Positions 4,744 through 31,376 of a stretch of DNA of 64,000 bases are shown here, piece by piece. The position numbers and the translations under genes were made by a program. The notes beneath the pieces are model-generated. The model saw only the letters and a program-made list of their open reading frames with translations, ran no database searches and was not told where the DNA came from. The stretch is from assembly GCA_041665465.1 (NCBI GenBank), contig JBAYIU010000001.1, positions 1,081,733 to 1,145,732 on the forward strand, written 5' to 3'. Numbering within the stretch: the stretch's first letter is position 1; each line of letters opens with the position of its first letter. Source of the DNA: Candidatus Woesearchaeota archaeon (GTDB lineage Archaea; Nanobdellota; Nanobdellia; Woesearchaeales; GW2011-AR9).

Positions 4744-6942
4744 ATGGCAAGTGAAAAGATGATCGATAAGGTCACCAGGATTACTCAAGATCCTAGATAT
4801 ATCCGAAATATTTGTACCAGTGCTCATATTCATCATGGTAAAACGGCTTTTACCGATAATTTGTTAGCGGCTGCTGGTCAGATGGCTTCTAAATATGCCG
4901 GAGATCTAGAACACGGTATGGAGACCTGGCAACATAAAGACGAACAAGAGAGATTAATGACTGTTGATTCCGCTAACGTTTCTATGGTTCATGAGTTTGG
5001 CGGTCATGAATATTTAATTAATTTGATTGATACTCCCGGTCACGTTGATTTTGGGGGAAACGTTACTAGAGCAATGAGAGCTGTTGATGGTACCGTTGTC
5101 TTGATTTGTGCAGTTGAGGGGGTAATGCCTCAAACTGAAACAGTAGTCAGACAAGCTTTGCGTGAAAGAGTTAAACCCGTATTATTCATTAATAAGATGG
5201 ATCGTTTAGTCAAAGAATTAAAACTTTCCCCTGATAAAATTGCAGAAAGAGTTCTGCTTTTAACTAAACAGTTCAATGATATGATTGAAAGAATTGCCGA
5301 ACCCCAATATAGAGAAAGCTGGAAAGTTAGTGTTCCTGATGGAAGTATGGCTTTTGGTTCTGCTCGTGAAAACTGGGCTCTGTCCTTTCCTTACATGAAT
5401 AAAAAAGGGATCAAGTTTGCAGACATCTTAAAAATTTATGAGATGGAAGAAGAAGAAAGAAAAGCGTGGGTGTGGGCTAATGCTCCTTTAAATGAAGTTA
5501 TTTTAGATATGATTATCAAGCATCATCCAGATCCACTTGATGCTCAGAAGTACAGAATTCCCAAGATCTGGCACGGAGACCCAGAGTCACAGTTTGGTAA
5601 GGATTTAATCAATTGTAACCCCAACGGTAAATTAGGTTTTGTTATTACTAGAATTGTGGTAGACCCAAAGTCAGGTAAGGATATTTCTGCAGGAAGATTG
5701 TTCAGTGGAACGGTTAGAAGCGGAATGGAAGTATATTTGAACAATACTAAGCAAAGACAAAGAGTTCAAAACGTCTATATTTATAACGGTATCAAGCCAG
5801 AGATTATGGAATTTTTGCCTGCTGGTAATGTTTTAGCTATTTCTGGAGTAGTTGGAAATGCTGGTGAAACCGTGACTATAGATGAAGAGCAGCCTTTTGA
5901 AGAATTGAAACATATCTTTGAACCGGTTATTACTAAAGCTATCGAACCTAAGAGACAAGGTGATTTGCCAAAGCTAGTTGAAGTTCTTAGAAAAGTTTCC
6001 CGAGAAGATCCTTCAGTTAAGATCGAGATTAATGAAGAAACCGGCCAGAACTTAATGCATGGTATGGGAGAACTGCACTTAGAGATTATTGAAAACAGAA
6101 TCGTTACCGAGAAAGGGGTCGAAATTAAAACTTCTCCACCTATTGTTGTTTATCGTGAAGCGATTACTAAAGCTTCTCCGGAAGTGGAAGGTAAATCTCC
6201 TAACAAGCACAACAAGCTCTATTTCAAAGTTGAACCTTTAGAACCAGAGATTATAGCAGCAGCTAAAGAAGGTAGGATTAACTCCGGCAGATACAGAAAG
6301 AAAGATGACCAGTTAATTGCTTTCTTGAGAGAAGAGTGTGGATGGGATGCTAAAACTGCAACTCAAGTCAAAGAGATTTACAATGGCAATATGATCATGG
6401 ATGTAACTAGGGGACAAGTTCACATTGGAGAGATTATGGAACTAGTACTTGACATGTTTGTAGATGTTATGAAACAAGGTCCTTTAGCTCGTGAACCCTG
6501 TATGGGTGTAAAAGTTATGTTAATGGACTGTACTTTGCATGAAGATGCTATCCATCGTGGTCCAGCGCAAATGTATCCCGCAATCAGAGAAGGTATCAGA
6601 GGAGCAATGATGCAGGCTGGTCCGATCATGTTTGAACCATTGCAAGTAACTAGAATCGAAGCTCCACATGATAATTTAGGAGAAGTATCTAAGTTAGTAA
6701 CTTCTAAACGTGGTCAATTGTTAGACGTGTTGCAAGAAGGAGATCAAACTGTAGTTATAGCTAAGTTGCCTGTTGCTGAAATGATAGGATGGAGCAGTGA
6801 TTTAAGGTCAGCTACTGGAGGTAGAGGAACTTCTTCTTTAGTTGATCAAAGCTTTGAAAAATTACCTTACGAATTAGCTGAGAAGGTTAGACAGCAGATC
6901 ATGCAGAGAAAAGGATTAACTGACGCTCAATTAGGGGCTTAA
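4744..6942 (+). CDS. fusA: Elongation factor 2 (aEF-2)
   Basis: 732 aa with G-domain motifs AHIHHGKT, LIDTPGHVDF and NKMDR. Diphthamide-region motif HEDAIHRGPAQ. Confidence 0.9.
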   Translation: MASEKMIDKVTRITQDPRYIRNICTSAHIHHGKTAFTDNLLAAAGQMASKYAGDLEHGMETWQHKDEQERLMTVDSANVSMVHEFGGHEYLINLIDTPGHVDFGGNVTRAMRAVDGTVVLICAVEGVMPQTETVVRQALRERVKPVLFINKMDRLVKELKLSPDKIAERVLLLTKQFNDMIERIAEPQYRESWKVSVPDGSMAFGSARENWALSFPYMNKKGIKFADILKIYEMEEEERKAWVWANAPLNEVILDMIIKHHPDPLDAQKYRIPKIWHGDPESQFGKDLINCNPNGKLGFVITRIVVDPKSGKDISAGRLFSGTVRSGMEVYLNNTKQRQRVQNVYIYNGIKPEIMEFLPAGNVLAISGVVGNAGETVTIDEEQPFEELKHIFEPVITKAIEPKRQGDLPKLVEVLRKVSREDPSVKIEINEETGQNLMHGMGELHLEIIENRIVTEKGVEIKTSPPIVVYREAITKASPEVEGKSPNKHNKLYFKVEPLEPEIIAAAKEGRINSGRYRKKDDQLIAFLREECGWDAKTATQVKEIYNGNMIMDVTRGQVHIGEIMELVLDMFVDVMKQGPLAREPCMGVKVMLMDCTLHEDAIHRGPAQMYPAIREGIRGAMMQAGPIMFEPLQVTRIEAPHDNLGEVSKLVTSKRGQLLDVLQEGDQTVVIAKLPVAEMIGWSSDLRSATGGRGTSSLVDQSFEKLPYELAEKVRQQIMQRKGLTDAQLGA

Positions 6943-9029: not shown

Positions 9030-9443
9030 TCAATATAAGGTATGCTTCTCACTTTGATTCTCTTTCTCTTGCAAATTCTTTCTATCCATCCATTGAAGAT
9101 ATTTTCTTAATGATGATCTGAAATCCAACAGGACCATTCCGGCATTAAACTCGGAAATATGGCCTGGTTTTCCTCTGAGGATATCTTCAATGGTAAAATG
9201 ATGAAGAGTATACGATGTCATTGAACCAAAAAGTAAAGGGGCAGTTAAGTTAGGACAATCCTCTTCAGCTTGCTTCCTCTGGAAGTAAGTTCCGTGAACG
9301 CAAGAACTGTGATCAAAATAGTCGTGCTCTTTAACAACGTAAATCTCTATTTCTGGATAATTCTTTAAGGTTTCGCTTCCCACATATATTGATAAGATTT
9401 TTTCCGTTAGATCTTTAGTTAATTGCATTTTAGTTTCCTCCAA
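9030..9443 (-). CDS. Hypothetical protein, last gene of the HD-hydrolase operon
   Basis: 137-aa ORF overlapping the HD gene end by 14 nt. GC is higher than the backbone. Confidence 0.4.
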   Translation of the reverse strand: MEETKMQLTKDLTEKILSIYVGSETLKNYPEIEIYVVKEHDYFDHSSCVHGTYFQRKQAEEDCPNLTAPLLFGSMTSYTLHHFTIEDILRGKPGHISEFNAGMVLLDFRSSLRKYLQWMDRKNLQEKENQSEKHTLY

Positions 9444-18736: not shown

Positions 18737-20575
18737 ATGGGATTAGCTGATAGATTCATAGAAGCAAGAGAAGCTTTTGAACTGGCTTATGATAGAGTTG
18801 CTAATGACCATTCTCGCTCATTACTGGATCCTCTGGTTCTTCCAGAGGTAGAACAATACTTGCCTGTACTTGCCGAAGCGGTTCGTGAAGCAAGTCTTCT
18901 TTCTCCACTTGAGATAGGAGAACTCATTTTTCATCCTAAAAAGGCTCAACGAGGTATGGGTACTGCAGAATGTCTTCTATTTGATTATCAGCTTGCTGCT
19001 GAAGGGTTTGGTTTGGCCAATGTAGAAAGAACATTGGGAGAATTTGCAGAATTAAGTGACTTCATGAGTTTAGTTATTGCGAAATTATCTACTTCTCCTG
19101 ATCTTCCTGCTGTTGAGAGAATATCTCTTATTGGTGGTTCAAAAAGAATAAAGTTGGTTCAAGGGACATCTGAAGTCAAAGGTGACAGTGCTGCTCAGAC
19201 CTATCTTGCTCGGGAAAGAGAAGCTCACTGTTTAGTCTTTCAAGGAGATGCCCCTCAACAAGTTCACAATGAAGTTACTGATTTACTTCTAGCTAGATTT
19301 GGTCCTCATAGTCCTTACTTTAAGAAAACAGGTAGATACATCCGGCCATATCATGTTGATGCTAAATCTGGTTTGGCAACCATTGCTCAACTTGATTCTG
19401 TTCCTGAGGTTCATAATATTGGTAATTTATCTGTAGCCCCTGCCTACTTTAGGGTAGGGGGAATGTTTATTGATTATCAAGATCTAGATGTGGTGATTGG
19501 TGAGCTTAAATCCTTTGGGTATAGTGTTAGTCCAGGTAGTTCTAATTCCTCTCTTACTGATCGTTTATTATCCGCAGGAGTACCTGAACCATTGGTTGAA
19601 CCATTAATCCAAAGTGTTAATGCCCAGATCGATCGACTAGATCATATCGTTACGGATACTATGACTGGGATTATGGGTCATGGTTGCGTAGGAAGATACG
19701 TTTCTTCAGAAGGAACGTATTGGTTTAAGATAGATACTAATTATTCTGCAGCGTATAAGTCTTCTCAGATTCCTGCGTTAATTCATGCTCGAGCAGAAGC
19801 AGGTAGTGAATTAGCCCAAGCCCTAGCTAGAAGAATTCCTTGCACTTTATCTGGTCTTCCGATTCAAGTAGGAGATTATCATGTTACTTTTTCTCGAGAT
19901 GCGAACGAAATGATGGTTCAGCCAGATTTAGTAGAAAGATCTATCCTGTCTGTAGAATTAGGGAGAGGAATAGGTCCCGAGATGCTTCAAAGGATTTATA
20001 CTACTGCATTATATCATGAAGTTTCTACTGATCTTAGTAAGGATAATCCTGATCCTTTGTTAAGCTCGGAAATTTTCCCCACCAATTTAGATCGGGAACA
20101 ATTGATAGCTCGTTTTAATGGAAGATTTACAGATTTTTCTTCTTTATTCAACAGAACTATTGATGGGGGCTATGAAGAAGGACGTGCTAGGTTATTAGAA
20201 CATCAACTTTCTGGGTCAATTCAAGGTATCTATGACAACAAACCTGAGAACTATGTGGGGGCTTGTTGTGTTGATCTTGGAATATCCAAACAAGGGGACG
20301 AAGTAGATGATTTAGCTAGATTGATGTTAGGAAAGGAAGAATTTGTGAAAAATCCCATTCTCTTAAATAATTATGTTGGTGCTTATATCAGAATTCGTCA
20401 AGGAATTCAGAAGAAATATCGTGGAGAAGCAACGTATCATCCTAGTGAAGAATTGTCTGAATTAGTTAGTCTACAATTACAATATGGTACTTGGAGAATG
20501 ATGGGATGGAGTGTAGTAAGGGGAGATGAAGAAGGATTAACTAAATATTTGCGATGTGCTCAAGAGTTTGTCTGA
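18737..20575 (+). CDS. Large hypothetical protein (612 aa)
   Basis: Long ORF with consistent coding potential and elevated GC (about 42%). No motif recognised. Confidence 0.5.
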   Translation: MGLADRFIEAREAFELAYDRVANDHSRSLLDPLVLPEVEQYLPVLAEAVREASLLSPLEIGELIFHPKKAQRGMGTAECLLFDYQLAAEGFGLANVERTLGEFAELSDFMSLVIAKLSTSPDLPAVERISLIGGSKRIKLVQGTSEVKGDSAAQTYLAREREAHCLVFQGDAPQQVHNEVTDLLLARFGPHSPYFKKTGRYIRPYHVDAKSGLATIAQLDSVPEVHNIGNLSVAPAYFRVGGMFIDYQDLDVVIGELKSFGYSVSPGSSNSSLTDRLLSAGVPEPLVEPLIQSVNAQIDRLDHIVTDTMTGIMGHGCVGRYVSSEGTYWFKIDTNYSAAYKSSQIPALIHARAEAGSELAQALARRIPCTLSGLPIQVGDYHVTFSRDANEMMVQPDLVERSILSVELGRGIGPEMLQRIYTTALYHEVSTDLSKDNPDPLLSSEIFPTNLDREQLIARFNGRFTDFSSLFNRTIDGGYEEGRARLLEHQLSGSIQGIYDNKPENYVGACCVDLGISKQGDEVDDLARLMLGKEEFVKNPILLNNYVGAYIRIRQGIQKKYRGEATYHPSEELSELVSLQLQYGTWRMMGWSVVRGDEEGLTKYLRCAQEFV

Positions 20576-21489
20576 GAAAAGTTTATTGCAAATAATGGCA
20601 CAGTAGTAAGATAAATCGTTCGAGCTAACTCTCCACAATAATATAAAATTAGGTTTTCTTCCCCTTTTGATTTTTTAAGAAGAAGAAATATTTCCCCATA
20701 AAGGAGATGTTTATTATTGTCATTTACTTGTTCTATTATCTTAAGATCTTTCTTTGAAAAACCTTCATATAGTAGTTCAAAACTGGCTTTAATCTCGGTA
20801 AATAATTTCAAGGTGCTGTTAGAAAAAACTGGCTTATTCTTTCCTTGCATTACTTCGTAAAGATGCAATAAACTATGTTGTGTTAGCAACAATCGTGTGT
20901 ATAATTCCCAGTAGGAGTTTATTCTCTCTTCTACAAATCTTCTTTTGGAGATATTTCTATTGCAAAAGTTAGAGTAACGATCAACATTTTTACTATTTTG
21001 TATTAAATGAGACAAATGAGAAAAATCCTTGTTCTTAAAATCGTTTTCTAATTGCTCAAAAGAGTTCTTAATAATTAGAAAGATTCGGCGCAGAAGTACT
21101 TCTTGCTTCTCCTCACTTGGTTCAGTTACGTTTTCCAAGATTAAGTAATTGGGGCTTTCTTCCACAATTTCAAACCCTAACAATCTTGCTTCTACTGTGT
21201 TCTTAATCAAATTTTTCTGTTTAGGGATGTTAAAAAATACTTTTATTCGGTCAAAGCCAGTACGATAAAGGACATTCAGATTACTGCGAATAATCTGTTC
21301 ACTTTCAGTAGATATCTTTAGGACAGAACTCTTCTTCTCACCTTTTGATTCGGTGCTGATGATAACTTTATTTTCTATTTCTTCTATATCTACTTCTTTT
21401 CCTGCCTTCAATCCGTTGAGTTTGGTCCATTTAGCGGGAAGAGTTAAAGTTAAAGCGTTATCCCCCTGCTTGATCAGTTTTCTACGCAT
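20560..21489 (-). CDS. AbrB-N/PhoU-like regulator (paralog 2 of 4)
   Basis: MRRKLIKQGDNALTLTLPAKWTKLNGLKAGKEVDIE at the N-terminus. Aligns with the other three paralogs. Confidence 0.65.
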   Translation of the reverse strand: MRRKLIKQGDNALTLTLPAKWTKLNGLKAGKEVDIEEIENKVIISTESKGEKKSSVLKISTESEQIIRSNLNVLYRTGFDRIKVFFNIPKQKNLIKNTVEARLLGFEIVEESPNYLILENVTEPSEEKQEVLLRRIFLIIKNSFEQLENDFKNKDFSHLSHLIQNSKNVDRYSNFCNRNISKRRFVEERINSYWELYTRLLLTQHSLLHLYEVMQGKNKPVFSNSTLKLFTEIKASFELLYEGFSKKDLKIIEQVNDNNKHLLYGEIFLLLKKSKGEENLILYYCGELARTIYLTTVPLFAINFSQTNS

Positions 21490-21528
21490 ATGTATTGAAT
21501 GTGGGGGTTTATTTTTAAACTTTTCTTA

Positions 21529-21575
21529 AACTTATATTACTTATATTTAAAATATAAGTTAAATATAAGTAGTTA
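21529..21575. promoter_or_regulatory. Composite palindromic operator-like element in a divergent promoter region
   Basis: aACTTATATTACTTATATTTaaAATATAAGTtAAATATAAGTag. Two direct copies of ACTTATATT face two copies of the reverse complement AATATAAGT. Confidence 0.45.
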
Positions 21576-21625
21576 CCGGTGTTGTCACTTATTAATAACA
21601 ATGAAGAAGATGAGGTAAAACAAAA

Positions 21626-21892
21626 ATGGTCACGGAAAGTTTAGATTTTGAACGAAATATTGGGTCTTTAGAGAGAGCCCTAAAATTACTCACAAAAGCG
21701 TACCTCTTAAGTGGAGCGATTGTAAGAGAAGAACAAGATCAAAGTAGAATTATTGCCTATACCAATGCGGCTTTATATTCTCTTGGTGTTGAACCCCGGG
21801 TTGATTTTTCAGAATGTCCTGATAGGTATACACCAAAAAATATTGCCGAACTAAGAAAGAAGACTCGGGAAGCATACCCTCACTTCTGCTAA
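21626..21892 (+). CDS. Hypothetical protein, first gene of a five-gene operon
   Basis: 88-aa ORF. Genes 21626-24918 are tightly spaced or overlapping (stop/start overlaps at 22653/22656, 23147/23150, 24103/24106). Confidence 0.35.
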   Translation: MVTESLDFERNIGSLERALKLLTKAYLLSGAIVREEQDQSRIIAYTNAALYSLGVEPRVDFSECPDRYTPKNIAELRKKTREAYPHFC

Positions 21893-21894
21893 AT

Positions 21895-22656
21895 ATGTTG
21901 AAAAATGGGGTTAATCTTGTCTGGAGAATAAAAATGAATCATCAATCAAATTTAGGATTAACTGCTTTGGTTGCTGGAGCTCTGGCTTTAATGAGTGCTT
22001 GTAATTCTGGAGTATCTAAAGAGGAAGAAAATAGATTATTACAACTAGAGAGACAAAAGCAAGTAGAAATACAAGAAGAGATGGCTAAACCTCTCTGTCC
22101 GGAAATACCTCTTTACTTAGCAAGAGAAAGCTCTCGATATGGGGCATTAGCAAAAGAATTTATCTTGACGTGTAATGATGTTGGTGGCCAGGGGGATTAT
22201 GGTCTTTTTGTTGAAGTAAAGAAAAATCTTTACAAAAATATGGAACAACAGAGGAAAGCTACCATTAAAGATTTGGTCTCTAAAGGAGTTATGTCTGAGA
22301 ATGGTACACTAAAATGTAGGTTTCCACAACCCGATTTGAATCAGTTAAGATCTGCCTATGATTCACTTTTTGAGAAAGAAGTAACTCCTATTTGGAGATG
22401 TCATACCAATAAAGGAAATATTCCAATGTGTGATTACATTGGATGTGCTGTTTTTACTGACAAGTATGGGGAAGAAAACTTTCAAAGAGGGAAATTTTGT
22501 AGTCCCACTGAAGCTGTAAGGGTGGAAAAAGATCAAATTGAAAGATATCTAATGCAAGAGAAAGGGGCTTGTCAACATGTGGATTATAATTATTTTGATC
22601 CGATCAGTGGGCAATGGTTCAATACTAAAACTGGAGTGATGAGGGACAAAAAATGA
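21895..22656 (+). CDS. Putative lipoprotein, Cys-rich
   Basis: Signal peptide ending in the lipobox-like LMSAC (likely start at the Met of MNHQSNLG at 21934). Several conserved Cys. Confidence 0.45.
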   Translation: MLKNGVNLVWRIKMNHQSNLGLTALVAGALALMSACNSGVSKEEENRLLQLERQKQVEIQEEMAKPLCPEIPLYLARESSRYGALAKEFILTCNDVGGQGDYGLFVEVKKNLYKNMEQQRKATIKDLVSKGVMSENGTLKCRFPQPDLNQLRSAYDSLFEKEVTPIWRCHTNKGNIPMCDYIGCAVFTDKYGEENFQRGKFCSPTEAVRVEKDQIERYLMQEKGACQHVDYNYFDPISGQWFNTKTGVMRDKK

Positions 22657-23150
22657 AACTATCTTATCTTATCTTAGCTTTGGGTTTAGCTACAGCTGGT
22701 GCTTGTACCTCTGAACAAGACAGAGCTAATCAAACTCGTTATAAAGCAGAAATTATTGCTTTATATGATCAACTAGAAGAGAAAGTTGCTAAAGCTCAGA
22801 ATCAATTAGCAATTGGCTCTATCGATCCTCTAAACAATGAGTATAAAGTGATTGAATGTTACAGAGTTTGGAGAGATTATCACTTTTCTACTAAGGAGGC
22901 CGGAGAACACAATTGGAAATATTGTTTATCTATCACTGAAGATGGAAAATATGATTGGGGGGCTTGTATTGATGACGCGGTGAATGAAATCTCTGAATCT
23001 AATCTTGATCCAAATCTATTGAAGGTTGGGGTGAAAAGTTCCTTTGAGAAACATTGTCGAGAACAAATAACCCTAGCTGATGAATTCATCTATTGTGCTG
23101 ATCATCTTAAACCTGAACCAGGTGTTGAAATTGAGGTAAATGAAATATGA
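22653..23150 (+). CDS. Putative lipoprotein
   Basis: MKLSYLILALGLATAGAC, a signal peptide with lipobox. Confidence 0.5.
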   Translation: MKLSYLILALGLATAGACTSEQDRANQTRYKAEIIALYDQLEEKVAKAQNQLAIGSIDPLNNEYKVIECYRVWRDYHFSTKEAGEHNWKYCLSITEDGKYDWGACIDDAVNEISESNLDPNLLKVGVKSSFEKHCREQITLADEFIYCADHLKPEPGVEIEVNEI

Positions 23151-24103
23151 TAAATGATAATTTAGAGATAATTGTAGAAAGAAGAGAAATTCGTCCAGAA
23201 AGAGATATTGTTGTCAAACAACTTGGGGTAGATTTCATAGATCAAGGAATCAATCGCGGATTTTTCGGATGGATAAGAGCTCGGATTGATCACTATTTAG
23301 ATTCAGAGAGTCGAACCTTAGCAGTTAGGAAGGAAGAATTCTTCCGAGATTATGCTACTACCTACACTACTTTATTTGGAAATGGGAATGATTGGGATTC
23401 TCTTCGAAGTATGGATCAAACTAAGATTGATGATACTCCTCAAGCAAGTTCCTTTTCTGGTTTAAGTCAGAAACATCGTGATGCGATTATTATTGATAAG
23501 ATAGTTAACGTCCTGGAAACCACCGAAGATCAGTTTGTGGCTGGATTATTCCGTGGATATTTGAGTCATGACTTAATGTGTTCAGATGCAGTTCATCAAT
23601 TGATTATGGGGTACGAACCGGGACAAGAATTCTCTTGGAGATCTAAACCTCGTCGTGAGATTACTCTTCATCAAGAAGGGGAATATTCCGAAAAGGTCAT
23701 CTGCAGATCAGAAGAAACGAAACGATTAACTCGAGATTATCCTATTGAAGATACTTTCGGAGAAGCTAGAGAGTATTTTGCTACTTGTAACAGAGCCATG
23801 GAACTCGCTCGACATTATCTCCGTTCTCCTGCTCAATGTACTGAAGCGGAAATGGGCGTTCTTGCTCCTTTCGCGGCTATCGCTGCTCGTGATGGAGAAT
23901 GGCGCGGTATTGAGTTAGAATGGAATGGCACAATTCTCGATTTCCAACAACATTTAGATGGAAATATGTTGGGAAGATTAGGTGAGGGAATCAAGAGATT
24001 ACAAGAAGCAAATATCGTTGACCTTCAGTATCATCAGGACAAAGTATATCTCTTGCCCACTGAAGGATTCATCCAATTGACTAGAGAGAGGTTGGGAAGA
24101 TAA
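23147..24103 (+). CDS. Hypothetical protein (318 aa)
   Basis: GC-rich (about 48-50%) ORF with no recognised motif. Translationally coupled on both sides. Confidence 0.5.
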   Translation: MINDNLEIIVERREIRPERDIVVKQLGVDFIDQGINRGFFGWIRARIDHYLDSESRTLAVRKEEFFRDYATTYTTLFGNGNDWDSLRSMDQTKIDDTPQASSFSGLSQKHRDAIIIDKIVNVLETTEDQFVAGLFRGYLSHDLMCSDAVHQLIMGYEPGQEFSWRSKPRREITLHQEGEYSEKVICRSEETKRLTRDYPIEDTFGEAREYFATCNRAMELARHYLRSPAQCTEAEMGVLAPFAAIAARDGEWRGIELEWNGTILDFQQHLDGNMLGRLGEGIKRLQEANIVDLQYHQDKVYLLPTEGFIQLTRERLGR

Positions 24104-24105
24104 GA

Positions 24106-24918
24106 ATGAAAAATCCAATAAATCTACTAAGGGGTTTAACTCAATCAGAAGAATTAAAATGGCAGGAAGCTTATGGTTTAATCTTAGCACGGGCGGAGGA
24201 GAAGACCAACCTTAAAGCATTAAGAACTGGAATTTATCGAGATCTTCAAGCACAAAAAATTCCTCCCAATGTCACAATGTCAACAAGAAGACATCCGGTA
24301 GACTATCTCTTACAGGCGCGTCTAGTCTTAGGCTCATGGCCGGATGCATTTTTATCCTATCTTTCTCCTAGTACTTGGACCTCTAGTGGTGGATCTTTTA
24401 AACTGGCAGAAGAGAGACTGGGTTACGATTTAGTAAACATTCTGCTGGAAAAAGAGAAAAAGCAAGGTCAATCCTCTATATTAGAAGTGGGTGCGGGATA
24501 TGCCGGATTTAAATCACAACCTGCTCAAGGGATGTGTAAATTATCTCACGTAGCGAATGACAAAATGGGCAATACCATTAATGCTTATTTCACTAACCTT
24601 TCTAGATGGCATGAACAACTCCCGAATGGAGTAGAAGAATTTCCCGGTGTTACTGCTAGTACCTTAGATTGTCTAAGCGGAAGAATATCTCCCTTAGATA
24701 TTATTTATTCTCAATGGGGAGCTTTTTATGATCCTCTAATTGATCGATTCATTCCTAGTGCGAGTGGTTTATTGAAATCAGATGGTTTGTTAATTTTTAA
24801 TCATTCTACTTTCTATGAGGGAGAGATCTTAAATGAAGCCAAAAAAAATCTTCTTTCCTTAGAAAAGAAAGTAGAGCTTCATCCTGGGAATAATATCTAT
24901 GCTTTTCGTAAAGCCTAA
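24106..24918 (+). CDS. Putative class I SAM-dependent methyltransferase
   Basis: ILEVGAGYAGF resembles motif I (E/D-x-G-x-G-x-G) in a Rossmann-like context. Weak evidence. Confidence 0.4.
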   Translation: MKNPINLLRGLTQSEELKWQEAYGLILARAEEKTNLKALRTGIYRDLQAQKIPPNVTMSTRRHPVDYLLQARLVLGSWPDAFLSYLSPSTWTSSGGSFKLAEERLGYDLVNILLEKEKKQGQSSILEVGAGYAGFKSQPAQGMCKLSHVANDKMGNTINAYFTNLSRWHEQLPNGVEEFPGVTASTLDCLSGRISPLDIIYSQWGAFYDPLIDRFIPSASGLLKSDGLLIFNHSTFYEGEILNEAKKNLLSLEKKVELHPGNNIYAFRKA

Positions 24919-24939
24919 ATAAACTTAATTTGTTACTTT

Positions 24940-25860
24940 TTATTTTTCTTCTTCTAGCATCTTTAATTGTAATAAAGAATGATTAAACATGGCAATAGTT
25001 CTAGCCACTTCAAATAGATAACACATCGCTAGTGGATTTAGCCCTTGTAATTTGTTTATTCGTTGATTAGTTATCTTTTCCATCTCATTTGCAAGGATGC
25101 CCGTTCTTTCTAATTCTGCAGGATTGTTTGCTTTAAAATAAGCTAGATACATCTGATCAAACATTTTGGTAAATTCTTCCATAAACGGAAGAATCTTCTG
25201 TTTTTGGTTTTTGGGGAGGTTAATGGTTGCTTGAACTAAACTAAACAGTTCTCTTTGGATTACGTAACAATCGCGATACTCCTGCCATTTAAATGGACTA
25301 TTCTTTAAGGGGTAATTAGAATAATTACTTCTAAGAATTGAATCACACTGAACCATACTCTTATTCAGGTTTGCAATACTTTTGAGGTTTTTAGAATCTT
25401 TTTTAAGCAGTTCTATCACTTCCAAAAATGTTTCTTTAACCAGATGAAAAGATCTTTTTTCTACAGTATTTATCTCGCTAGGGAAAGGGATTAAATTAGC
25501 TAGAATACAACAATTATTCTTTGTTTCTCTGATCTCATACCCATAAACATAATTATCTACCACTTCTCGAATATTTTTGAGGAATTGATCCTTTTCTTTC
25601 TCTTTAAAGAACAAGGTAAAACGGTCGCAACCCAAACGAATCAGAGAAAACATAATTCCTCGGATATTTCCAATATCTGAGTATTCTAGAGTTACACTGC
25701 GTTCTTTAGCTGGTCTTTTGTAATCTTCTGCTTGAATAATCAGCTGATTTTGTTCTTCTTCAATCTTAACTTCTTTACTCCCCAGCTTATTGCGGTCTAC
25801 CCAGTATTTAGGTACTGTCAGCAAATAAGAACCTTTATTGAAGACTAATTTTCTATGCAT
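24940..25860 (-). CDS. AbrB-N/PhoU-like regulator (paralog 3 of 4)
   Basis: MHRKLVFNKGSYLLTVPKYWVDRNKLGSKEVKIEEE at the N-terminus. Same architecture as the other paralogs. Confidence 0.65.
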   Translation of the reverse strand: MHRKLVFNKGSYLLTVPKYWVDRNKLGSKEVKIEEEQNQLIIQAEDYKRPAKERSVTLEYSDIGNIRGIMFSLIRLGCDRFTLFFKEKEKDQFLKNIREVVDNYVYGYEIRETKNNCCILANLIPFPSEINTVEKRSFHLVKETFLEVIELLKKDSKNLKSIANLNKSMVQCDSILRSNYSNYPLKNSPFKWQEYRDCYVIQRELFSLVQATINLPKNQKQKILPFMEEFTKMFDQMYLAYFKANNPAELERTGILANEMEKITNQRINKLQGLNPLAMCYLFEVARTIAMFNHSLLQLKMLEEEK

Positions 25861-25883
25861 TCTTTCTTTAATCTTAAGTTTCT

Positions 25884-25917
25884 ATATAAACCTTCCCTAG
25901 GGAAGATAGGGGAGAAG
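25884..25917 (+). promoter_or_regulatory. TATA-like element (TATATAAA) followed by the motif CCCTAGGGAAGATAGGGGAGAAG, which recurs at 27755-27777
   Basis: A near-identical motif, CCCTAGGGAAACTAGGGGGGAG, lies upstream of the 27850 gene. Both sit 50-100 nt before a + strand start. Confidence 0.45.
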
Positions 25918-25947
25918 TCTATAACAATTTTATTGTTTTAATCTCTC

Positions 25948-26754
25948 TTGGTGGTAGTGGGGGTTTTAAAAATGGCGTGGTTTATGAGACATAAGATACC
26001 TTATTTGGGTAAAGGAGATATACAACAGCAATATGATCATGAGAACAACCAAGTCTCTAATACTTTGTGTTATGGGGGAGTTTTTCTTAATCTTACTGGG
26101 GAAGAAAAGAATCGGGAAGAAGCAAGATGTTTTATCGGATTAGATGGTTTTTGGTTTTATGGGCACAAAGCTATAACTGCCTATCCTACTATTGATGCTG
26201 GGATAATGGTGGTTAAATATCGTGCTCTTGAAGAGGTTTCTCCTGACCAAGTAAATCATTTCTTAAAAAGAGAGTTCACTAATTGTGATGGTCCGGAGCG
26301 TGATGTTGGTTTAGAGATGGATATCTTTAAAGATCAAAGACTAGTCGTTAAACCAAAGGAAATGGCTCGTTATCATGATGAACTTAGAGAATGGCTCGAG
26401 GTATTGAATACTCATTATGCTCGACCTCATGCAGTTATGGTGGTTATGGCTATGAAACAGGAACTTCGTTCCTTGCCGGTGTTGGCTTTGGGTAATCGGT
26501 TGAATTATTCTGGACAAGAACGTGAAAAGAGAGGTGAACATGGAGCAAACCTATTCCCTCGGCCCACAGACATTCCTCTTCGAGATCGAGAGTTTGCTAA
26601 AGAATATCTTAAAGAATGCACTCCCGAAAACTATGAAGTGATTCAAGCAGCAAAAGCACATGGAATTAAAGAAGTGCGGCCGGTTCTAGACGAACTTGCT
26701 CGAGCTAAAGAGAAATTTGTGGAATCTTGGAGTTTGGACGGAAGGTTGTGGTAA
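25948..26754 (+). CDS. Hypothetical protein (268 aa)
   Basis: ORF with elevated GC. The true start may be the internal MAWFMRHK. No motif recognised. Confidence 0.45.
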   Translation: MVVVGVLKMAWFMRHKIPYLGKGDIQQQYDHENNQVSNTLCYGGVFLNLTGEEKNREEARCFIGLDGFWFYGHKAITAYPTIDAGIMVVKYRALEEVSPDQVNHFLKREFTNCDGPERDVGLEMDIFKDQRLVVKPKEMARYHDELREWLEVLNTHYARPHAVMVVMAMKQELRSLPVLALGNRLNYSGQEREKRGEHGANLFPRPTDIPLRDREFAKEYLKECTPENYEVIQAAKAHGIKEVRPVLDELARAKEKFVESWSLDGRLW

Positions 26755-26761
26755 AATGGCA

Positions 26762-27211
26762 TTAAGTTATCACAAATTCTGTTTTTATTTGTTTTAAAGA
26801 AGTGATGTCCTTAATGTGGGCCACTCCTTTACGGGCAACGACTCGTTTTAAGAATTCATAATATTGATCGACGTCTTTAGTTCTTACTTTAACGATAAGT
26901 TCACAATCTCCCATACAAACATCTACACTTTCCACTTCGGGGTGTTTAGCTATCTCTCTGCCAATCCTCTCTGGATTATCATATTCTTGTTCTGAGAGGT
27001 GAATCAGGACAAAACAGCAAAAACCTTCCTCTATTTTCTTGTAGTCAAAAATGGCTTTATATGTTCTTATAATCCCCTCTCGTTCCAATTTGTGAATATT
27101 ATAATGAATGGTGGTGGTGGGTTCTTTGATTTTTTTAGCAATCCTAGCCAACTGTGGAGTACAATAGTCCTCTTTAAGGAGAGGAATTAGCTTTGCTTGG
27201 ATATCTTTCAT
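26762..27211 (-). CDS. Lrp/AsnC-family transcriptional regulator (single-unit, 149 aa)
   Basis: HTH_AsnC (TPQLARIAKKIKEPTTTIHYNIHKLEREGII) plus a RAM domain. Confidence 0.7.
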   Translation of the reverse strand: MKDIQAKLIPLLKEDYCTPQLARIAKKIKEPTTTIHYNIHKLEREGIIRTYKAIFDYKKIEEGFCCFVLIHLSEQEYDNPERIGREIAKHPEVESVDVCMGDCELIVKVRTKDVDQYYEFLKRVVARKGVAHIKDITSLKQIKTEFVIT

Positions 27212-27213
27212 GA

Positions 27214-27273
27214 GATTATTGAATAATATTCAATTTTTTATAAAACTTTCGCATGATTATTGAATATTATTCC
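27214..27273. promoter_or_regulatory. Two direct copies of a near-palindromic box (GATTATTGAATA(A)TATT) upstream of the Lrp gene; candidate Lrp autoregulatory operator
   Basis: 27214-27234 and 27255-27273, each containing ATTGAATA/TATTCAAT symmetry. The TATA-like element TTTTTTATAAAAC lies between them. Confidence 0.4.
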
Positions 27274-27334
27274 GATATACTTATAATGATGTTACCCCTC
27301 CTAAAGGGTATCAAAAACAAAAGGGGGGAATAAA

Positions 27335-27685
27335 ATGACTGATTTAAGAGGAAAAGTAAGGGAAGTAGTAATAGGAAAAAGTGGAGGCGAATTAGTCGCA
27401 AGATTAAATGATGGCCAAGAAGTGGTCCTACTTAGAGCACCACATGGACATTATTTTGGTAGTGTACTTAGTGAGCCACAATTATGTGGGGATATCGTGA
27501 GATACACTAGAACTGATCACATTAGTGCTAGGGGAGATTATGGGAGTATTAGTAGAGATGAGGTAATGTCCTGTACTGTTGACCTGCGCGGAACAGCCCT
27601 TATTGAAAATGAAGGCGATAATCATAAATATGATTCTGTCAACCGTTCATGTCCTCGTACTCCTACACGATCATTTAGTTGGTAA
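27335..27685 (+). CDS. Hypothetical protein (116 aa)
   Basis: Strong RBS-like AAAAGGGGGGAATAAAATG. GC about 45%. Confidence 0.4.
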   Translation: MTDLRGKVREVVIGKSGGELVARLNDGQEVVLLRAPHGHYFGSVLSEPQLCGDIVRYTRTDHISARGDYGSISRDEVMSCTVDLRGTALIENEGDNHKYDSVNRSCPRTPTRSFSW

Positions 27686-27849
27686 TTAAAGAATCGTTGG
27701 GGGTATAAGGTAATTTCCTTTATCTTACTTTATTTTCTCTCTGGAGGGAGTTATCCCTAGGGAAACTAGGGGGGAGTTTAAAATAAACTTCTCTCTATTT
27801 TAGCTTAAATAGTTGGTTTTGGTGTTTTATAAATGTGGAGTGATCAATA

Positions 27850-28443
27850 ATGTCAATTAGAAAATATTTTGTGTCGATTGCCGCTGCGACGGTATTATTG
27901 GGGGGGTTAGCTTGCACTAAAATTGGATCTACTGCGGATACTTTGCTAGGGATGGCTTTGGATAATCCTAACTATCTTAGAATGGAACAGAGAGATACGG
28001 GAGTTGCTAACACTGCTTTCAAGGATAAAACTACCGGAAATTTAGTTTACACTTTGTTAAGAGATGGGTTTGAGGGAACAGTAACAGAATATTTTGATCT
28101 TAATCATAATGGGCAAGTTGATGGTGAAGATTATTTTGCTCGAGTTAAGGTACTTAGGGGCATAGATTGCGAAGGAAGTGATTCTGGTTGTCTAGACGAA
28201 GAATGTACTTTATGCTCTATGGTTGACTGTTTTACTCATTATCCTCAAACCGTCTCAACTAAGCCGCTTAAGGCTGTAACTACTGCTGCTGATCCTCTCA
28301 CTTTGTATCCTGCAAGCCAAGTTGACTTAATCTCTAGATATAAGGTTCAATCTCCTCGAGAAATTGCTCTGTGTGTGATTAATGGTGCAAGAGAATTAAA
28401 CCAAACTTATTCTGTAGTGGTTGATCCAAATCTTTTACCTTAG
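27850..28443 (+). CDS. Putative lipoprotein with an EF-hand-like Ca-binding loop
   Basis: Signal peptide with the lipobox LGGLAC. DLNHNGQVDGED matches the DxNxNGxxDxxE Ca-binding loop. Multiple Cys. Confidence 0.5.
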   Translation: MSIRKYFVSIAAATVLLGGLACTKIGSTADTLLGMALDNPNYLRMEQRDTGVANTAFKDKTTGNLVYTLLRDGFEGTVTEYFDLNHNGQVDGEDYFARVKVLRGIDCEGSDSGCLDEECTLCSMVDCFTHYPQTVSTKPLKAVTTAADPLTLYPASQVDLISRYKVQSPREIALCVINGARELNQTYSVVVDPNLLP

Positions 28444-28451
28444 GAGGAAAA

Positions 28452-29531
28452 ATGAAACGAATCACTTTAGCTAGTTTATTGTTGGGAGCTGCTCTTAGTT
28501 TGGGCGGATGTCATGAAGATACTCCGCAAGAGCAGATTGCAGATAAATTATCTCGTTCTCCAAAAAGTTTTCTGTGTGCGGTAGAGGATCACGTTAATTC
28601 TACTGCTCCTGCATTGTCCGTGGCTTCAGTATTGCAAACCGTTCCGGTGCTTAGTCCCGTAGTTAAGAATGATCTTCCCAAGACTATTCCTTTTACTGCT
28701 AATAGTGCTCCTAGAAAACATCGCGCTAACCAAGTTAATGGTAACATATTAACTGTTTACTTTACTACTGATCATTCTAGCTTTAACTCAAACGATACTG
28801 CTGATTTGGAAACCTATCTTCAAAGTTTACCTAATGGAACCCATTTGTTGGTAGAAGGTTATGCTGATCGAAGAGGTACTGATGAACATAACGCCTTGCT
28901 TAGTCAGCAAAGAGCTCAAGCTGTATCTGATTACGCTAAGAGATTTAATCCTACTTTGGAAACTGAACTTTATTCTTTTGGTGAGGGTCATCCGGCAGTG
29001 GAAGGTAAAGGGTTCAAGACTTATCAAGCTAATCGTCGAGTTAGAATTATCCCTCAAAAAAGTGAAGGAGTGATCACTACTGGACTAAGTACTTTAAAAC
29101 CATCTGATTATTATCTATTAGACCGAACCGGCTCAATGAAGGATATTCAATGGAATAGAGTTTCTAAGTGGAATGAAGTTCAATCTTATCAATTTCCAAA
29201 AGGGGCTAGTCTTTACACTTTTACTACTAATAATGTAACTAAAGGATGCACTGGTGAAGATTTAAATCAACTTACTCCTGATGGAGAGACTCCTTTGTTT
29301 GTGTCTTTATACTCTTTGTTAGATGAGATGAAAGAAGGTAGATCTGTAACTGTGCTAACTGATGGGATTAACAATGTAGGAGATGTTAGTGATAAGGACA
29401 TTATAGAAAGAGCTAGAGCAAAAAAGATTACTCTTTCCTTTCTAGCTCTAGTCCCTTGTGATAAGGACAGATTAACTTATCTGGCGAAAGAAACCGGCGG
29501 AGATACTTACTTGCCGATTGAGAAAGAATAA
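28452..29531 (+). CDS. Lipoprotein with an OmpA-like (peptidoglycan-associated) domain and a von Willebrand factor A domain
   Basis: Lipobox LSLGGC. VEGYADRRGTDEHNALLSQQRAQAV is the OmpA-C signature. YYLLDRTGSM (MIDAS DxSGS) and VLTDGINN mark a vWA domain. Confidence 0.65.
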   Translation: MKRITLASLLLGAALSLGGCHEDTPQEQIADKLSRSPKSFLCAVEDHVNSTAPALSVASVLQTVPVLSPVVKNDLPKTIPFTANSAPRKHRANQVNGNILTVYFTTDHSSFNSNDTADLETYLQSLPNGTHLLVEGYADRRGTDEHNALLSQQRAQAVSDYAKRFNPTLETELYSFGEGHPAVEGKGFKTYQANRRVRIIPQKSEGVITTGLSTLKPSDYYLLDRTGSMKDIQWNRVSKWNEVQSYQFPKGASLYTFTTNNVTKGCTGEDLNQLTPDGETPLFVSLYSLLDEMKEGRSVTVLTDGINNVGDVSDKDIIERARAKKITLSFLALVPCDKDRLTYLAKETGGDTYLPIEKE

Positions 29532-29544
29532 TGGAGAATGAAAA

Positions 29545-29925
29545 ATGATTGGATACATTAAACAAACTGTTTTGGCTTTAACGGCCTTTGGATTTATGAT
29601 TGGATCTGCTTATGCTGAGCAAAGAGATTTTTCTCCTCAGAAACAGTTAGCTAGAGTAGAAGCTCAGATTAAAACCGGAAAAGGAAACTTAGAAGAATTA
29701 AGAGAATTAAGATCTTATTTTAGAGATAGTGCTTCTTGTGATGCTCTGCAACAGAAATACTGGAAGAACTGTCAAGAACCAGAGCAGAGAGCTGCTTCTG
29801 AGAAACTTTGCGCTAGCTTAGATGCAGAAATTGATTCATTATGGGAATCTTGGTTAGAAACTCCTGATTTTAATCAACGATTAGATAATTATGGGTTTTG
29901 CGGACAGGATTATGTTGGTGACTAG
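29545..29925 (+). CDS. Secreted hypothetical protein
   Basis: N-terminal signal peptide, with a likely AYA-EQ cleavage site. 126 aa. Confidence 0.45.
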   Translation: MIGYIKQTVLALTAFGFMIGSAYAEQRDFSPQKQLARVEAQIKTGKGNLEELRELRSYFRDSASCDALQQKYWKNCQEPEQRAASEKLCASLDAEIDSLWESWLETPDFNQRLDNYGFCGQDYVGD

Positions 29926-29942
29926 TTTTTAAAAATTAAATC

Positions 29943-31376
29943 ATGACTATTAAAGAAAAGTTTGAAGCGATAAGGGATTATCGCAGCAGTAAAAAAGTCC
30001 AGATTGATCGTTTCTTAGATCCAGCTTTGTTTCTCACTTTTACTAATGCTGCTAGTTTGTATGGGTTAGATACGGCTTTAAACTGGGTGGCAGAACATTC
30101 AGATAAGCATGAAGGATTGGCTATGCTGGGAACTTATGCTGTTCTTGGTACAGGAATATATGAATTAAATAAGCATGTTCTTATCCCGGTAGCGAAGAGA
30201 ATAAAGCAATATCATGAGATCCGTGCTTTAAGAGGAAAAGATGCTACTGTTCTTAGCTTTGGTAAATCTGGAGCTTCACTAGCAGCATTAGCTACTTTGT
30301 ACGTTGTAGCTGGATTTAATCTTACCCTTAATGATTTCTACTGGGATGGAGATAGAGTAATTGATGCTTTTGCTCGTCATAAAAAAGCAGAACAAACCAT
30401 TGAAGAGGCTCAAGCTATTGATGTTACTCCTTTATCCTTAGAAGAAAGAGTTACTCTTGTGAATGAAACCAATATTTTAGAGAATAAAACATCTCTTGCT
30501 TCCTCTTCTGAGATTAAAGTAGAAAGTCCAACCGAGATTGGTAATTCTAACAAATATTCTACTAAAGGACGTTATTTAAGAACTCATCGCTGGGATAAAA
30601 TAAACCGAGCGGTAGAACAAAAATATGGGATTGAAGAAGGTCTTCTCTCCGGATTACAGATGAGAGAGAGTTATGGTAATCCGTTAGAACTTAATTCTGG
30701 AGATGATGGTGGAGCAGGATTGATGATGTTCCAACCCGGAACGGCCAAAGTATATGGTCTTAAAGTTTATGATGATGCTGGAGCTACGGGAAGAGATCGT
30801 AATCATGGAAGAAAACTTATCAAGTTAGTTAAAGATAATAATTATGATTATGAAGCTCTTGCTTCTATTGATGAAAGATTTGATGTACTTAAGAGTGCAG
30901 ATGCAGCAGGCAGATATCTTAGAGAGTTGTATGATAAATATGGTTCATGGGACAGCGCTTTATCTGCTTATAATCGAGGAACTCCGGCAACTAATCCTAA
31001 ATCTACTCGCCATGTTAAAACTACTCGAGAATATCAGCGATATTATCTTGAACATAATTCTGCAGGGGGAGAAAAGGTTGATGAAACCGTTTTGACTCGT
31101 CTTCGGCAAGATAGATTACCGGAATATCGATTCGTTAGAACAAATGAATTGGGACAAGCGGTTTATATGTACCGTGTTGAAGCTGGAGATAATGCCACAG
31201 TTATCGCTGAAACCTTTAATCGTTGGGATGGGAAACATGGAAGCAGATATCAAGACGTTGATTATACTCATATCGTTAATAGAGATAGAAAATATGTGGG
31301 ACACAGATTACATCCTGAGCAGTATGTTTACGTTTTAGCTGAACCTCTAGCTAAATCTAAACTTAAGAAGAAATAG
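29943..31376 (+). CDS. Membrane-anchored lytic transglycosylase (SLT domain) with a C-terminal LysM-like module
   Basis: Two N-terminal TM segments. QMRESYGNP...GGAGLMMFQPGTA...AYNRG is the SLT family signature with the catalytic Glu. The C-terminus YRVEAGDNATVIAETFN is LysM-like. Confidence 0.65.
   Translation: MTIKEKFEAIRDYRSSKKVQIDRFLDPALFLTFTNAASLYGLDTALNWVAEHSDKHEGLAMLGTYAVLGTGIYELNKHVLIPVAKRIKQYHEIRALRGKDATVLSFGKSGASLAALATLYVVAGFNLTLNDFYWDGDRVIDAFARHKKAEQTIEEAQAIDVTPLSLEERVTLVNETNILENKTSLASSSEIKVESPTEIGNSNKYSTKGRYLRTHRWDKINRAVEQKYGIEEGLLSGLQMRESYGNPLELNSGDDGGAGLMMFQPGTAKVYGLKVYDDAGATGRDRNHGRKLIKLVKDNNYDYEALASIDERFDVLKSADAAGRYLRELYDKYGSWDSALSAYNRGTPATNPKSTRHVKTTREYQRYYLEHNSAGGEKVDETVLTRLRQDRLPEYRFVRTNELGQAVYMYRVEAGDNATVIAETFNRWDGKHGSRYQDVDYTHIVNRDRKYVGHRLHPEQYVYVLAEPLAKSKLKKK

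Follow-up and report, generated by a model that had tools for sequence, protein, structure and literature searches.

Two near-identical short elements stand before two separate sets of accessory genes in a locus from a Ca. Woesearchaeota MAG (source genome 1.56 Mb), and the question is what they do there. A preliminary description left the choice between an operator for one of the local regulators, a transcription-start or 5′UTR element, and a remnant of a small mobile repeat. These readings are weighed here in the window, i.e., the whole stretch of 64 kb of DNA that was analysed, and in related loci.

A palindromic box present in two copies

Both elements are found on the + strand where they had been placed, at 25895–25917 (copy 1, CCCTAGGGAAGATAGGGGAGAAG) and 27755–27777 (copy 2, CCCTAGGGAAACTAGGGGGGAGT). 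Their reported near-identity holds, with agreement at 18 of the 21 positions of the earlier formula, and so do the distances reported from the boxes to the open reading frames (ORFs) beginning at 25948 and 27850. The view that such a repeat would not arise by chance is borne out as well: the only two occurrences of CCCTAGGGAANNTAGGGG in 64 kb are those at 25895 and 27755 (+ strand), where chance alone would give 0.02. A pattern with 16 specified bases has only two matches on both strands of the 64-kb window, even when as many as three mismatches are allowed; the chance expectation for the pattern at two mismatches or fewer is 0.02, and two matches were reached in none of 100 shuffles. Within the window, the 8-mer palindrome CCCTAGGG is restricted to the two box copies.

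The unit had been written as a palindrome followed by TAGGGG, and this composition stands, but the exact bounds do not. What is conserved is a perfect palindrome of 10–14 bp, (C)TTCCCTAGGGAA(G), with a third half-site, TAGGGR, 9 bp downstream. In copy 1, which lies between two divergent promoters, the palindrome CTTCCCTAGGGAAG spans 25892–25905 and the half-site TAGGGGA 25907–25913 (+ strand). In copy 2, which precedes a lipoprotein/OmpA/SLT operon, the palindrome TCCCTAGGGA spans 27754–27763 and the half-site TAGGGGG 27767–27773 (+ strand). The box thus combines dyad symmetry with repeated half-sites, as an operator would.

Position of the box relative to promoters

Copy 1 occupies the 27 bp that separate two back-to-back archaeal promoters. 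On its left, the motif TATATAAA (25883–25890) stands 4 nt ahead of the copy and had been assigned to the ORF at 25948. This is the wrong gene; the geometry fits the divergent minus-strand gene for RegA, a protein of 306 aa (24940–25860, − strand; NCBI locus tag WCV90_06385). The TATA box, which reads TTTATATAG on the − strand (25882–25890), is centred 26 nt from the RegA ATG at 25860, which is the canonical leaderless spacing here, and it is therefore attributed to RegA; the same spacing implies a leaderless RegA mRNA. Leaderless promoters appear to be the norm in this DNA, since TATA-like octamers in the window pile up at −30 to −25 from ATGs (15 of 38 matches). The palindrome arm GGGAAGG adjoins the RegA TATA box, at the position of the BRE.

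To the right of copy 1, the TATA-like box TCTATAAC (25918–25925, + strand) begins 6 nt past the third half-site and is the proposed promoter of a gene for a 268-aa protein, with a predicted transcription start site (TSS) at about 25948. Directly after copy 2 lies a second TATA-like box, TTTAAAATA (27777–27785, + strand), with a predicted TSS at about 27807, from which the transcript would have about 40 nt of leader, including a predicted Shine–Dalgarno sequence, GGAGTGAT, before the ATG at 27850. The TSS positions at both target promoters are predicted by analogy with the TATA spacing in the window. In nine of nine sites, a TATA-like octamer lies 6–7 nt beyond the TAGGG half-site, toward the target gene, and the box thus holds the fixed non-coding position relative to BRE and TATA that is looked for in an operator.

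This geometry does not lend support to a 5′UTR or TSS element, since the boxes lie upstream of the TATA-like boxes. That the box works as a transcribed RNA hairpin, whether a 5′UTR element, a processing site or a terminator, is accordingly very unlikely, even if its arms can pair (hairpins of 7–12 bp, −9 to −20 kcal/mol) and genes of the same direction precede the copy 2 sites. Copy 1 is flanked by the starts of divergent genes and by two TATA boxes, and the hairpin would not be wholly transcribed because transcription is predicted to start about 26 nt from either TATA box, within the element or past it. Furthermore, there is no T-tract after the box, folding yields inconsistent z-scores (−1.4, −2.4, −0.2 and −4.6), the stem is invariant and so provides no covariation in support of an RNA structure, and Rfam and tRNA scans of the window gave no matches. 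Neither a terminator nor a structured RNA is indicated by such a combination of divergent gene starts, no T-tract and no Rfam match.

Conservation across related lineages

Orthologues of RegA are encoded in related loci, with identities of 94% (L030), 78% (L059), 63% (L060), 48% (L061) and 49–50% (L062 and L027). In all of L030, L059, L060, L061 and L062/L027, TTCCCTAGGGAA-NN-TAGGG is located 34–36 nt upstream of the RegA ATG. When the regions upstream of RegA orthologues that are 48–100% identical are aligned (alignment A1), 17 of the 19 box columns are invariant, compared with 4 of 23 columns from the ATG to the TATA box and 3 of 40 downstream. The box is kept where the flanking non-coding DNA has diverged, which is the phylogenetic footprint expected of an operator. 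A positional relation to promoters in relatives had been proposed earlier as a test of the motif, and the box is found beside TATA-like boxes in every lineage. In L062, it is linked to the RegA gene though the rest of the neighbourhood differs.

Copy 2 has an orthologue in L030 at position 6498, with one mismatch in the 17-nt core and two in the 18-nt pattern, and another in L059 at position 9118, which is inverted relative to the gene and has arms of 10 nt (TCTTCCCTAG GGAAA CTAGGGAAGA). Inversion is as expected for a dyad protein site. In L030, two genes are inserted upstream, and copy 2 is still found about 60–80 nt before the lipoprotein ATG; judged by this insertion, copy 2 tracks the conserved operon and not the upstream gene.

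The number and spacing of the copies bear on the suggestion that a small mobile repeat left the boxes behind, or that they are att-like direct repeats flanking an inserted 1.9-kb cassette. The direct copies do bracket three lineage-restricted genes (p268, Lrp and p116), and related loci have one or two copies, the more distant lineages having a single one. In these single-copy lineages, however, the box is at the same promoter position, and it must therefore predate any insertion. The similarity between copies stops at the box, with no terminal inverted repeats and no target-site duplications, and the spacing of the copies is variable (1860 nt in the window vs 3493 nt in L030). Nor is there dispersal, with two copies in 64 kb of the window and one in the 11.3 kb examined of the 153-kb contig of L027. 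With these copy numbers, and with copy 2 of L059 showing that either orientation occurs, the mobile-repeat proposal is not upheld; the boxes resemble neither MITE-like elements nor att remnants, and we regard such an origin as highly improbable.

Outside the related loci, the pattern has no evident following. A scan of 185,579 species genomes (596 Gb, the source genome not among them) returned 15 single, chance-like matches in unrelated bacteria and archaea; a metagenome scan returned 37 matches, in which the related loci are only L027, L029 and L030; and a viral scan returned four, all unrelated.

RegA as the proposed binding protein

Two kinds of neighbouring regulator had been put forward as binders of the box, Lrp and PhoU-like proteins, RegA being one of the latter. 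The gene of the Lrp/AsnC protein (26762–27211) is located between the two copies, in the window as well as in L030. It is, however, missing from L059, L060, L061 and L062, all of which retain the box, so that the box and the Lrp gene do not co-occur, and a conserved repeat of another kind, GATTATTGAATAWTATTC, is present twice in the promoter region of Lrp. We see hardly any chance that the boxes are Lrp operators. The local-regulator proposal is well supported for the PhoU-like/AbrB candidate, by virtue of an invariant box at a fixed position by the regulator gene in five lineages.

RegA probably joins an AbrB/SpoVT-like region at its N-terminus to a central α/β domain and six PhoU-like helices at its C-terminus. 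The N-terminal β-rich domain comprises about 45 residues, and the AbrB region is modelled at pLDDT below 55. RegA itself has no Pfam match at E ≤ 0.01, but PF04014 (AbrB/MazE) matches a paralogue in the window (E 1.2e-6) and the 48%-identical orthologue P0004, and the N-termini align. The six sequences do not differ at residues 1–15, which fall in the AbrB DNA-binding region, despite overall identities down to 48%. Residues 130–305 are modelled as six long helices with a pLDDT of about 90, and the best eight PDB matches to the model are all PhoU or PhoU-like, at weak scores (E about 1e-2, TM 0.35–0.57); a profile of the regulators searched against PDB sequences gave no match. The family member P0030 carries both PF04014 and PF01895 (PhoU), and several members are named ‘phosphate uptake regulator’ by JGI. 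Among 5.8 billion proteins, the woesearchaeal RegA clade is represented by just six clusters, which makes it a very small one.

The paralogue in the window (20560–21489; WCV90_06355), with a block of its own at 21529–21572, is divergent from an operon, and so are the distant family members P0012, P0018 and P0021, which have 25–28% identity. The CCCTAGGG box is absent beside all four, and different AT-rich palindromes are found at the equivalent position. If these factors are autoregulated, a distinct palindrome beside each paralogous regulator is what one would expect.

The boxes are thus probably operators of RegA, common to three promoters; the assignment of RegA as the binder is inferred from its co-localisation and co-conservation with the box. 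A different protein could in principle take its place, i.e., the box could be a promoter-associated site of a factor encoded elsewhere (another transcription factor or a TFB/TBP variant), in which case RegA would simply be among the genes under its control. From the footprint and the promoter geometry one can tell that the box is bound, but not by which protein; the DNA-binding domain of RegA is assigned by weak or indirect homology; and an unlinked factor regulating this divergon would leave an identical footprint. Still, we judge this unlikely, given that box and RegA gene go together in each of the five lineages, L062 included, that each paralogous regulator has a distinct palindrome where RegA has the box, and that TAGGGRR half-sites show no enrichment in the window (28 found vs 34 expected). 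A general, BRE-like promoter element was also considered and rejected, as TAGGGRR is mostly intragenic and not at other promoters.

If RegA is the binder, each operator, consisting of the palindrome and the third half-site, would suit a swapped-hairpin AbrB-type dimer or a dimer of dimers. At copy 1, the GGGAAGG arm abutting the RegA TATA box on the left would occupy the BRE of the leaderless promoter, and the third half-site on the right would end 6 nt before the weaker TATA-like box that is proposed to drive the 268-aa gene. The same arrangement recurs at copy 2, 6 nt before the TATA-like box that would head the lipoprotein–OmpA/vWA–SLT operon. Bound RegA would in this way govern access of TFB and TBP. 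In archaea, the sites of activators are typically just upstream of the BRE, and those of repressors typically overlap it. For RegA's own consensus promoter, negative autoregulation would be the most likely outcome, and for the weak target promoters either co-repression or activator-type recruitment of TFB/TBP may be envisaged. The PhoU-like domain may serve to sense a signal or to oligomerise the protein.

Genes downstream of the box

Copy 1 precedes the gene for the 268-aa ORFan (25948–26754, + strand), whose start is either TTG at 25948 or ATG at 25972, and whose homologues form two clusters only. Copy 2 precedes the operon at 27850–31376 (+ strand), which encodes a lipoprotein of 197 aa, an OmpA/vWA protein of 359 aa (so labelled, the Pfam match being for the OmpA domain only), a secreted protein of 126 aa and an SLT protein of 477 aa, which is a lytic transglycosylase. 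Only the Lrp, OmpA, SLT and AbrB proteins of the island are recognised by Pfam, NCBIfam or PHROGs, and no family was found in these collections for the 268-aa, 116-aa and 197-aa proteins.

The genes after the box are of the same kind elsewhere. In L060, the box precedes SLT and then OmpA; in L061, an M23 peptidase and homologues of the 197-aa lipoprotein and the 359-aa OmpA protein; and in L062, a homologue of the latter. Copy 2 of L059 precedes the 197-aa lipoprotein, the 126-aa protein and SLT. The proposed targets are secreted envelope proteins that are homologous across lineages.

Discussion

Divergent promoters with autoregulatory operators are familiar in archaea, e.g., the control regions of Lrp-family regulators, SurR and TrmB/TGM, and the activators Ptr2 and EarA use upstream sites. 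The box agrees with these operators in being dyad-symmetric, in abutting or overlapping BRE/TATA, in lying beside a regulator gene, in being common to that gene and a divergent target operon, and in recurring at a second promoter; it differs in that the presumed binder is of AbrB/SpoVT–PhoU type and not a winged-helix protein. In a literature search, neither TTCCCTAGGGAA-N2-TAGGG nor the three-half-site layout was found among described archaeal motifs.

The AbrB/MazE/SpoVT family (PF04014) includes Bacillus AbrB and SpoVT, as well as MazE/VapB-type antitoxins that autoregulate via palindromic promoter sites. RegA shares with this family a putative N-terminal β-rich domain and a gene placed beside a palindrome as if for autoregulation, but it has no partner toxin and is fused to α/β and six-helix PhoU-like domains in an archaeal TBP/TFB context. 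A protein type annotated as ‘SpoVT/AbrB family regulator containing PhoU domain’ or ‘phosphate uptake regulator’ is represented by TK2245 of T. kodakarensis (PMC7325993), and PhoU-family transcription factors have been counted in P. furiosus (PMC6316755). RegA resembles these archaeal AbrB–PhoU proteins in its predicted AbrB-like N-terminus, its predicted PhoU-like helical C-terminus and its length of about 300 aa. The genes linked with the woesearchaeal clade are those of envelope proteins and peptidoglycan hydrolases, and not genes for phosphate transport. The searchable literature yielded neither a binding site nor a regulon for archaeal AbrB–PhoU proteins.

Extracellular murein-like lytic transglycosylase proteins, often very large, have been described in Woesearchaeota and Pacearchaeota by Castelle et al. 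2021 (PMC8204110), and the bacterial-type murein hydrolases of these lineages have been suggested to mediate interaction with bacterial hosts (PMC8204110). The SLT protein downstream of the box belongs to the same lineage and has an SLT domain of the same kind, but it has only 477 aa and is encoded in an operon with a lipoprotein and an OmpA/vWA protein under a conserved cis-element; the earlier study covers such proteins, not their regulation (PMC8204110).

The proposed design changes no concept, being a standard operator within a divergent promoter. What it adds is a first candidate recognition sequence for AbrB–PhoU fusions, an archaeal class that is widely annotated yet uncharacterised, and a search pattern by which the regulon may be defined in complete genomes. 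DPANN archaea are uncultivated and, to our knowledge, their gene regulation is essentially unknown; here, a conserved cis-element links a lineage-specific AbrB/PhoU-like regulator to murein-hydrolase-type genes. A further, tentative possibility is that RegA and the box form a dedicated switch, with PhoU-like sensing, that turns on a peptidoglycan-binding and -cutting surface apparatus (lipoprotein, OmpA/vWA, SLT and M23) in a wall-less DPANN archaeon, in which case the box would be the first defined site of an archaeal AbrB–PhoU protein, with clade-specific operators co-evolving with their regulators. If this is true, the box would provide a regulatory handle on the attachment of these archaea to bacterial hosts, or on their attack.

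Genomic setting and anatomy of the box

The archaeal identity of the window shows in its genes for EF-1alpha, S10 and a CCA-adding enzyme of archaeal type. The stretch from S10 to the CCA enzyme holds a block (18737–31376) whose proteins are mostly family-less, several carrying lipoprotein-type signal peptides; it also encodes an OmpA/vWA-annotated protein (the label denotes a Pfam match for the OmpA domain only), an SLT lytic transglycosylase, one Lrp/AsnC regulator, and two paralogous regulators of ~306–309 amino acids with an AbrB/SpoVT-like N-terminus. The block spans 12.6 kb, has a persistently positive GC skew and an amino-acid usage less lysine-rich than that of adjacent genes, and shows no phage-family matches besides the SLT domain; its location is syntenic in the related contigs L030, L059 and L060, and different in L062.

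Two copies of a GC-rich box are present on the forward strand, where the preliminary description had placed them. Copy 1 (CCCTAGGGAAGATAGGGGAGAAG, 25895–25917) is located in the 87-nt gap between the regulator gene RegA (24940–25860, reverse strand) and a divergent gene for a 268-residue protein, and copy 2 (CCCTAGGGAAACTAGGGGGGAGT, 27755–27777) precedes by 73 nt the lipoprotein gene at the head of the operon lipoprotein–OmpA/vWA–126 aa–SLT (27850–31376). These are the only two sites for CCCTAGGGAANNTAGGGG on both strands of the 64-kb window with up to three mismatches, against a chance expectation of 0.02 with up to two, which bears out the earlier claim that such a repeat is unlikely by chance; the 8-mer CCCTAGGG is likewise confined to the two copies. 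With a G+C content of 36% and an under-representation of CTAG (374 observed vs ~488 expected in a first-order model), a repeated, GC-rich, CTAG-centred box is not a chance occurrence, and the depletion makes a CTAG-centred operator even more conspicuous.

The element is thus repeated as described, but its unit had been drawn differently: it consists of a perfect palindrome of 10–14 bp and a third half-site, TAGGGR, that starts 9 bp past the second half-site, the 2 bases separating palindrome and third half-site being unconstrained. The copy 1 palindrome reads CTTCCCTAGGGAAG in the window, in L030 and in L059; L061 and L062 have TTCCCTAGGGAA; and the copy 2 palindrome is TCCCTAGGGA in both the window and L030. 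Copy 2 of L059 has 10-nt arms (TCTTCCCTAG GGAAA CTAGGGAAGA) and is inverted relative to the gene downstream.

Promoter geometry

TATA-like octamers ahead of first genes cluster sharply between −30 and −25 relative to the ATG (15 of 38 matches in the window), behind a purine-rich, AAAAGG-like BRE. First genes in this Woesearchaeote thus seem, as a rule, to be transcribed without leaders from canonical archaeal promoters. Internal operon genes throughout the window have a GGAGG or GGTGA Shine-Dalgarno motif instead. The TATA box of RegA, TTTATATAG (25882–25890, reverse strand), is centred 26 nt from the ATG, a spacing shared by all lineages; TATATAAA, noted earlier ahead of the ORF at 25948, is therefore RegA's own box. 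The palindrome arm GGGAAGG adjoins this TATA box and fills the BRE position of the RegA promoter. On the opposite side, a TATA-like octamer faces the target gene 6–7 nt past a TAGGG half-site at 9/9 sites (examples are TCTATAAC, TTTAAATA, TATAAATA, TTTATTAA, TTTAAAAT, CTATATAC and TAATATAT). Transcription is predicted to start near 25948 for copy 1 and near 27807 for copy 2, the latter giving a leader with a Shine-Dalgarno motif.

Flanked on both sides by promoter elements, the box is probably untranscribed. A function as an RNA hairpin is disfavoured by its position between divergent TATA boxes, by the missing T-tract, by inconsistent folding z-scores and by the lack of an Rfam match. The TAGGGRR half-site is not enriched, which excludes a general promoter element.

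Conservation among relatives

Scans of genome and viral collections for the box returned single chance-like matches only, and a metagenome scan gave 37 matches, three of which (L027, L029 and L030) share homologous flanking sequence with copy 1. Searching 5.8 billion proteins with RegA as query yielded no more than six clusters. The comparison took in five lineages besides the window, namely L030 (94% RegA identity) and the RegA-cluster contigs L059 (78%), L060 (63%), L061 (48%) and L062/L063 (49–50%). The box lies 34–36 nt upstream of the RegA start codon, counted from corrected start codons, in all five. In the control-region alignment, TTCCCTAGGGAA-NN-TAGGG has 17 invariant columns out of 19, the stretch from start codon to TATA box has 4 out of 23, and the DNA downstream of the box 3 out of 40. 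By this comparison the conservation of the box is a clear phylogenetic footprint.

The preliminary description had also allowed for the remnant of a mobile repeat. A mobile or att-like origin is disfavoured, since the flanks of the copies lack similarity, their spacing varies, one copy is inverted in L059, single-copy lineages share the same promoter context, and the box is not dispersed across the window and the collections scanned.

Candidate target genes and their possible history

From lineage to lineage, the box is followed by homologous genes. The box precedes SLT and then OmpA in L060, an M23 peptidase with lipoprotein and OmpA/vWA homologues in L061, and an OmpA/vWA homologue in L062. 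In L059, copy 2 precedes lipoprotein, 126-aa and SLT genes, and copy 1 a homologue of the 268-residue protein (L059 9168–9900) with an in-frame stop, which reflects a pseudogene or an assembly error. The 268-residue protein itself (25948–26754) is an ORFan: the 5.8 billion proteins searched include two clusters of homologues, and no family matches it.

In the simplest history, the ancestor would have had RegA and the envelope operon with a single box; the window's lineage would have gained the ORFan by insertion, with Lrp and a 116-aa gene arriving afterwards, and a second box would have retained the envelope operon under the same control. In L030, copy 2 is still with the lipoprotein gene despite two further genes (126 and 306 aa) between the 116-aa and lipoprotein genes, which ties it to the downstream promoter and not to the 3′ end of the upstream gene. 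The 116-aa gene region of L030 has a small additional ORF with a rearranged start. RegA-adjacent genes also vary among close relatives (window 24106–24918; L030 1179–2042; L059 10937–12641): a 270-aa gene and a radical-SAM/SPASM gene are both present in L059, only the former in the window and only the latter in L030.

RegA as the likely binder

The RegA gene adjoins the box in every lineage, and residues 1–15 of the protein (MHRKLVFNKGSYLLT), which lie within the AbrB-type DNA-binding region, do not vary even where overall identity drops to 48%. The idea of a shared operator for a local regulator was essentially right, given the footprint and its fixed position beside RegA; of the Lrp and PhoU-like proteins proposed as binders, the AbrB/PhoU-like RegA is most likely the one, and not Lrp, which four of the five other lineages lack and whose own promoter region has a different conserved repeat. 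Binding by an unlinked factor is unlikely, and would be expected to leave an identical footprint. Between the Lrp and 116-aa genes, two copies of GATTATTGAATA(A/T)TATTC, 41 nt apart (27213–27275), each include the palindrome TTGAATAATATTCAA or a near match and are conserved in L030 (4432–4490); they are probably Lrp autoregulatory boxes.

The paralogue of RegA (20560–21489, reverse strand) has a leaderless TATA box, TTTTTAAA (21512–21519), and beside it, at the RegA-equivalent position, a 44-nt AT-rich block, AACTTATATTACTTATATTTAAAATATAAGTTAAATATAAGTAG (within 21512–21572), in which ACTTATAT occurs as two direct and two inverted units. This block, 43/44 identical in L059 (14690–14733) where the flanks differ, is probably the paralogue's private operator, controlling the divergent operon 21626–24918. 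Distant family members (25–28% identity; L064, L066 and L068) are divergent from operons of small unknown proteins and have palindromes of the AACTTATATAAGTT or TTAATATTA type at the equivalent position, never the CCCTAGGG box. Such clade-specific palindromes, held at a fixed position beside each regulator gene, have the look of autoregulated factors with co-evolving operators.

Pfam PF04014 (AbrB/MazE) matches the paralogue and the RegA orthologue P0004, and one family member combines PF04014 with PF01895 (PhoU). RegA itself has no Pfam match reaching significance, and for this reason its membership of the AbrB-PhoU class is likely but not proven. Its structure model (mean pLDDT 80) has a poorly resolved N-terminal beta domain, a beta-alpha-beta-alpha-beta-beta centre (residues ~53–122) and six confident C-terminal helices, whose best PDB matches are all PhoU proteins (E ~1e-2). 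The central domain gives weak, repeated matches to Alba/Sso10b chromatin proteins (2h9u, 1nfj and 8xap; target-normalised TM ~0.5–0.6), and an AbrB, Alba-like and PhoU-like architecture, if true, would be unusual. Other archaea have annotated AbrB-PhoU fusions, such as TK2245 (PMC7325993) and PhoU-family transcription factors in P. furiosus (PMC6316755); a literature search found no described binding site for them.

Proposed mechanism and implications

RegA, as a dimer or dimer of dimers, would occupy the palindrome and the third half-site, and its PhoU-like domain would take in a signal. At RegA's own strong leaderless promoter the site would overlap the BRE, which makes negative autoregulation likely. 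At the weaker target promoters it would end just upstream of the BRE, a position from which archaeal sites permit either TFB/TBP recruitment (activation) or occlusion (repression), and RegA may do either. The binder, the transcription start positions and the sign of regulation are alike inferred.

RegA and its box, with RegA the most likely binder, are on this evidence a newly defined regulator–operator pair, familiar in type. What makes it of interest is the organism, a member of the DPANN, together with the genes that would be regulated, which encode surface proteins that bind or cut peptidoglycan; proteins of this kind have been tied in the literature to bacterial-host interaction (PMC8204110).
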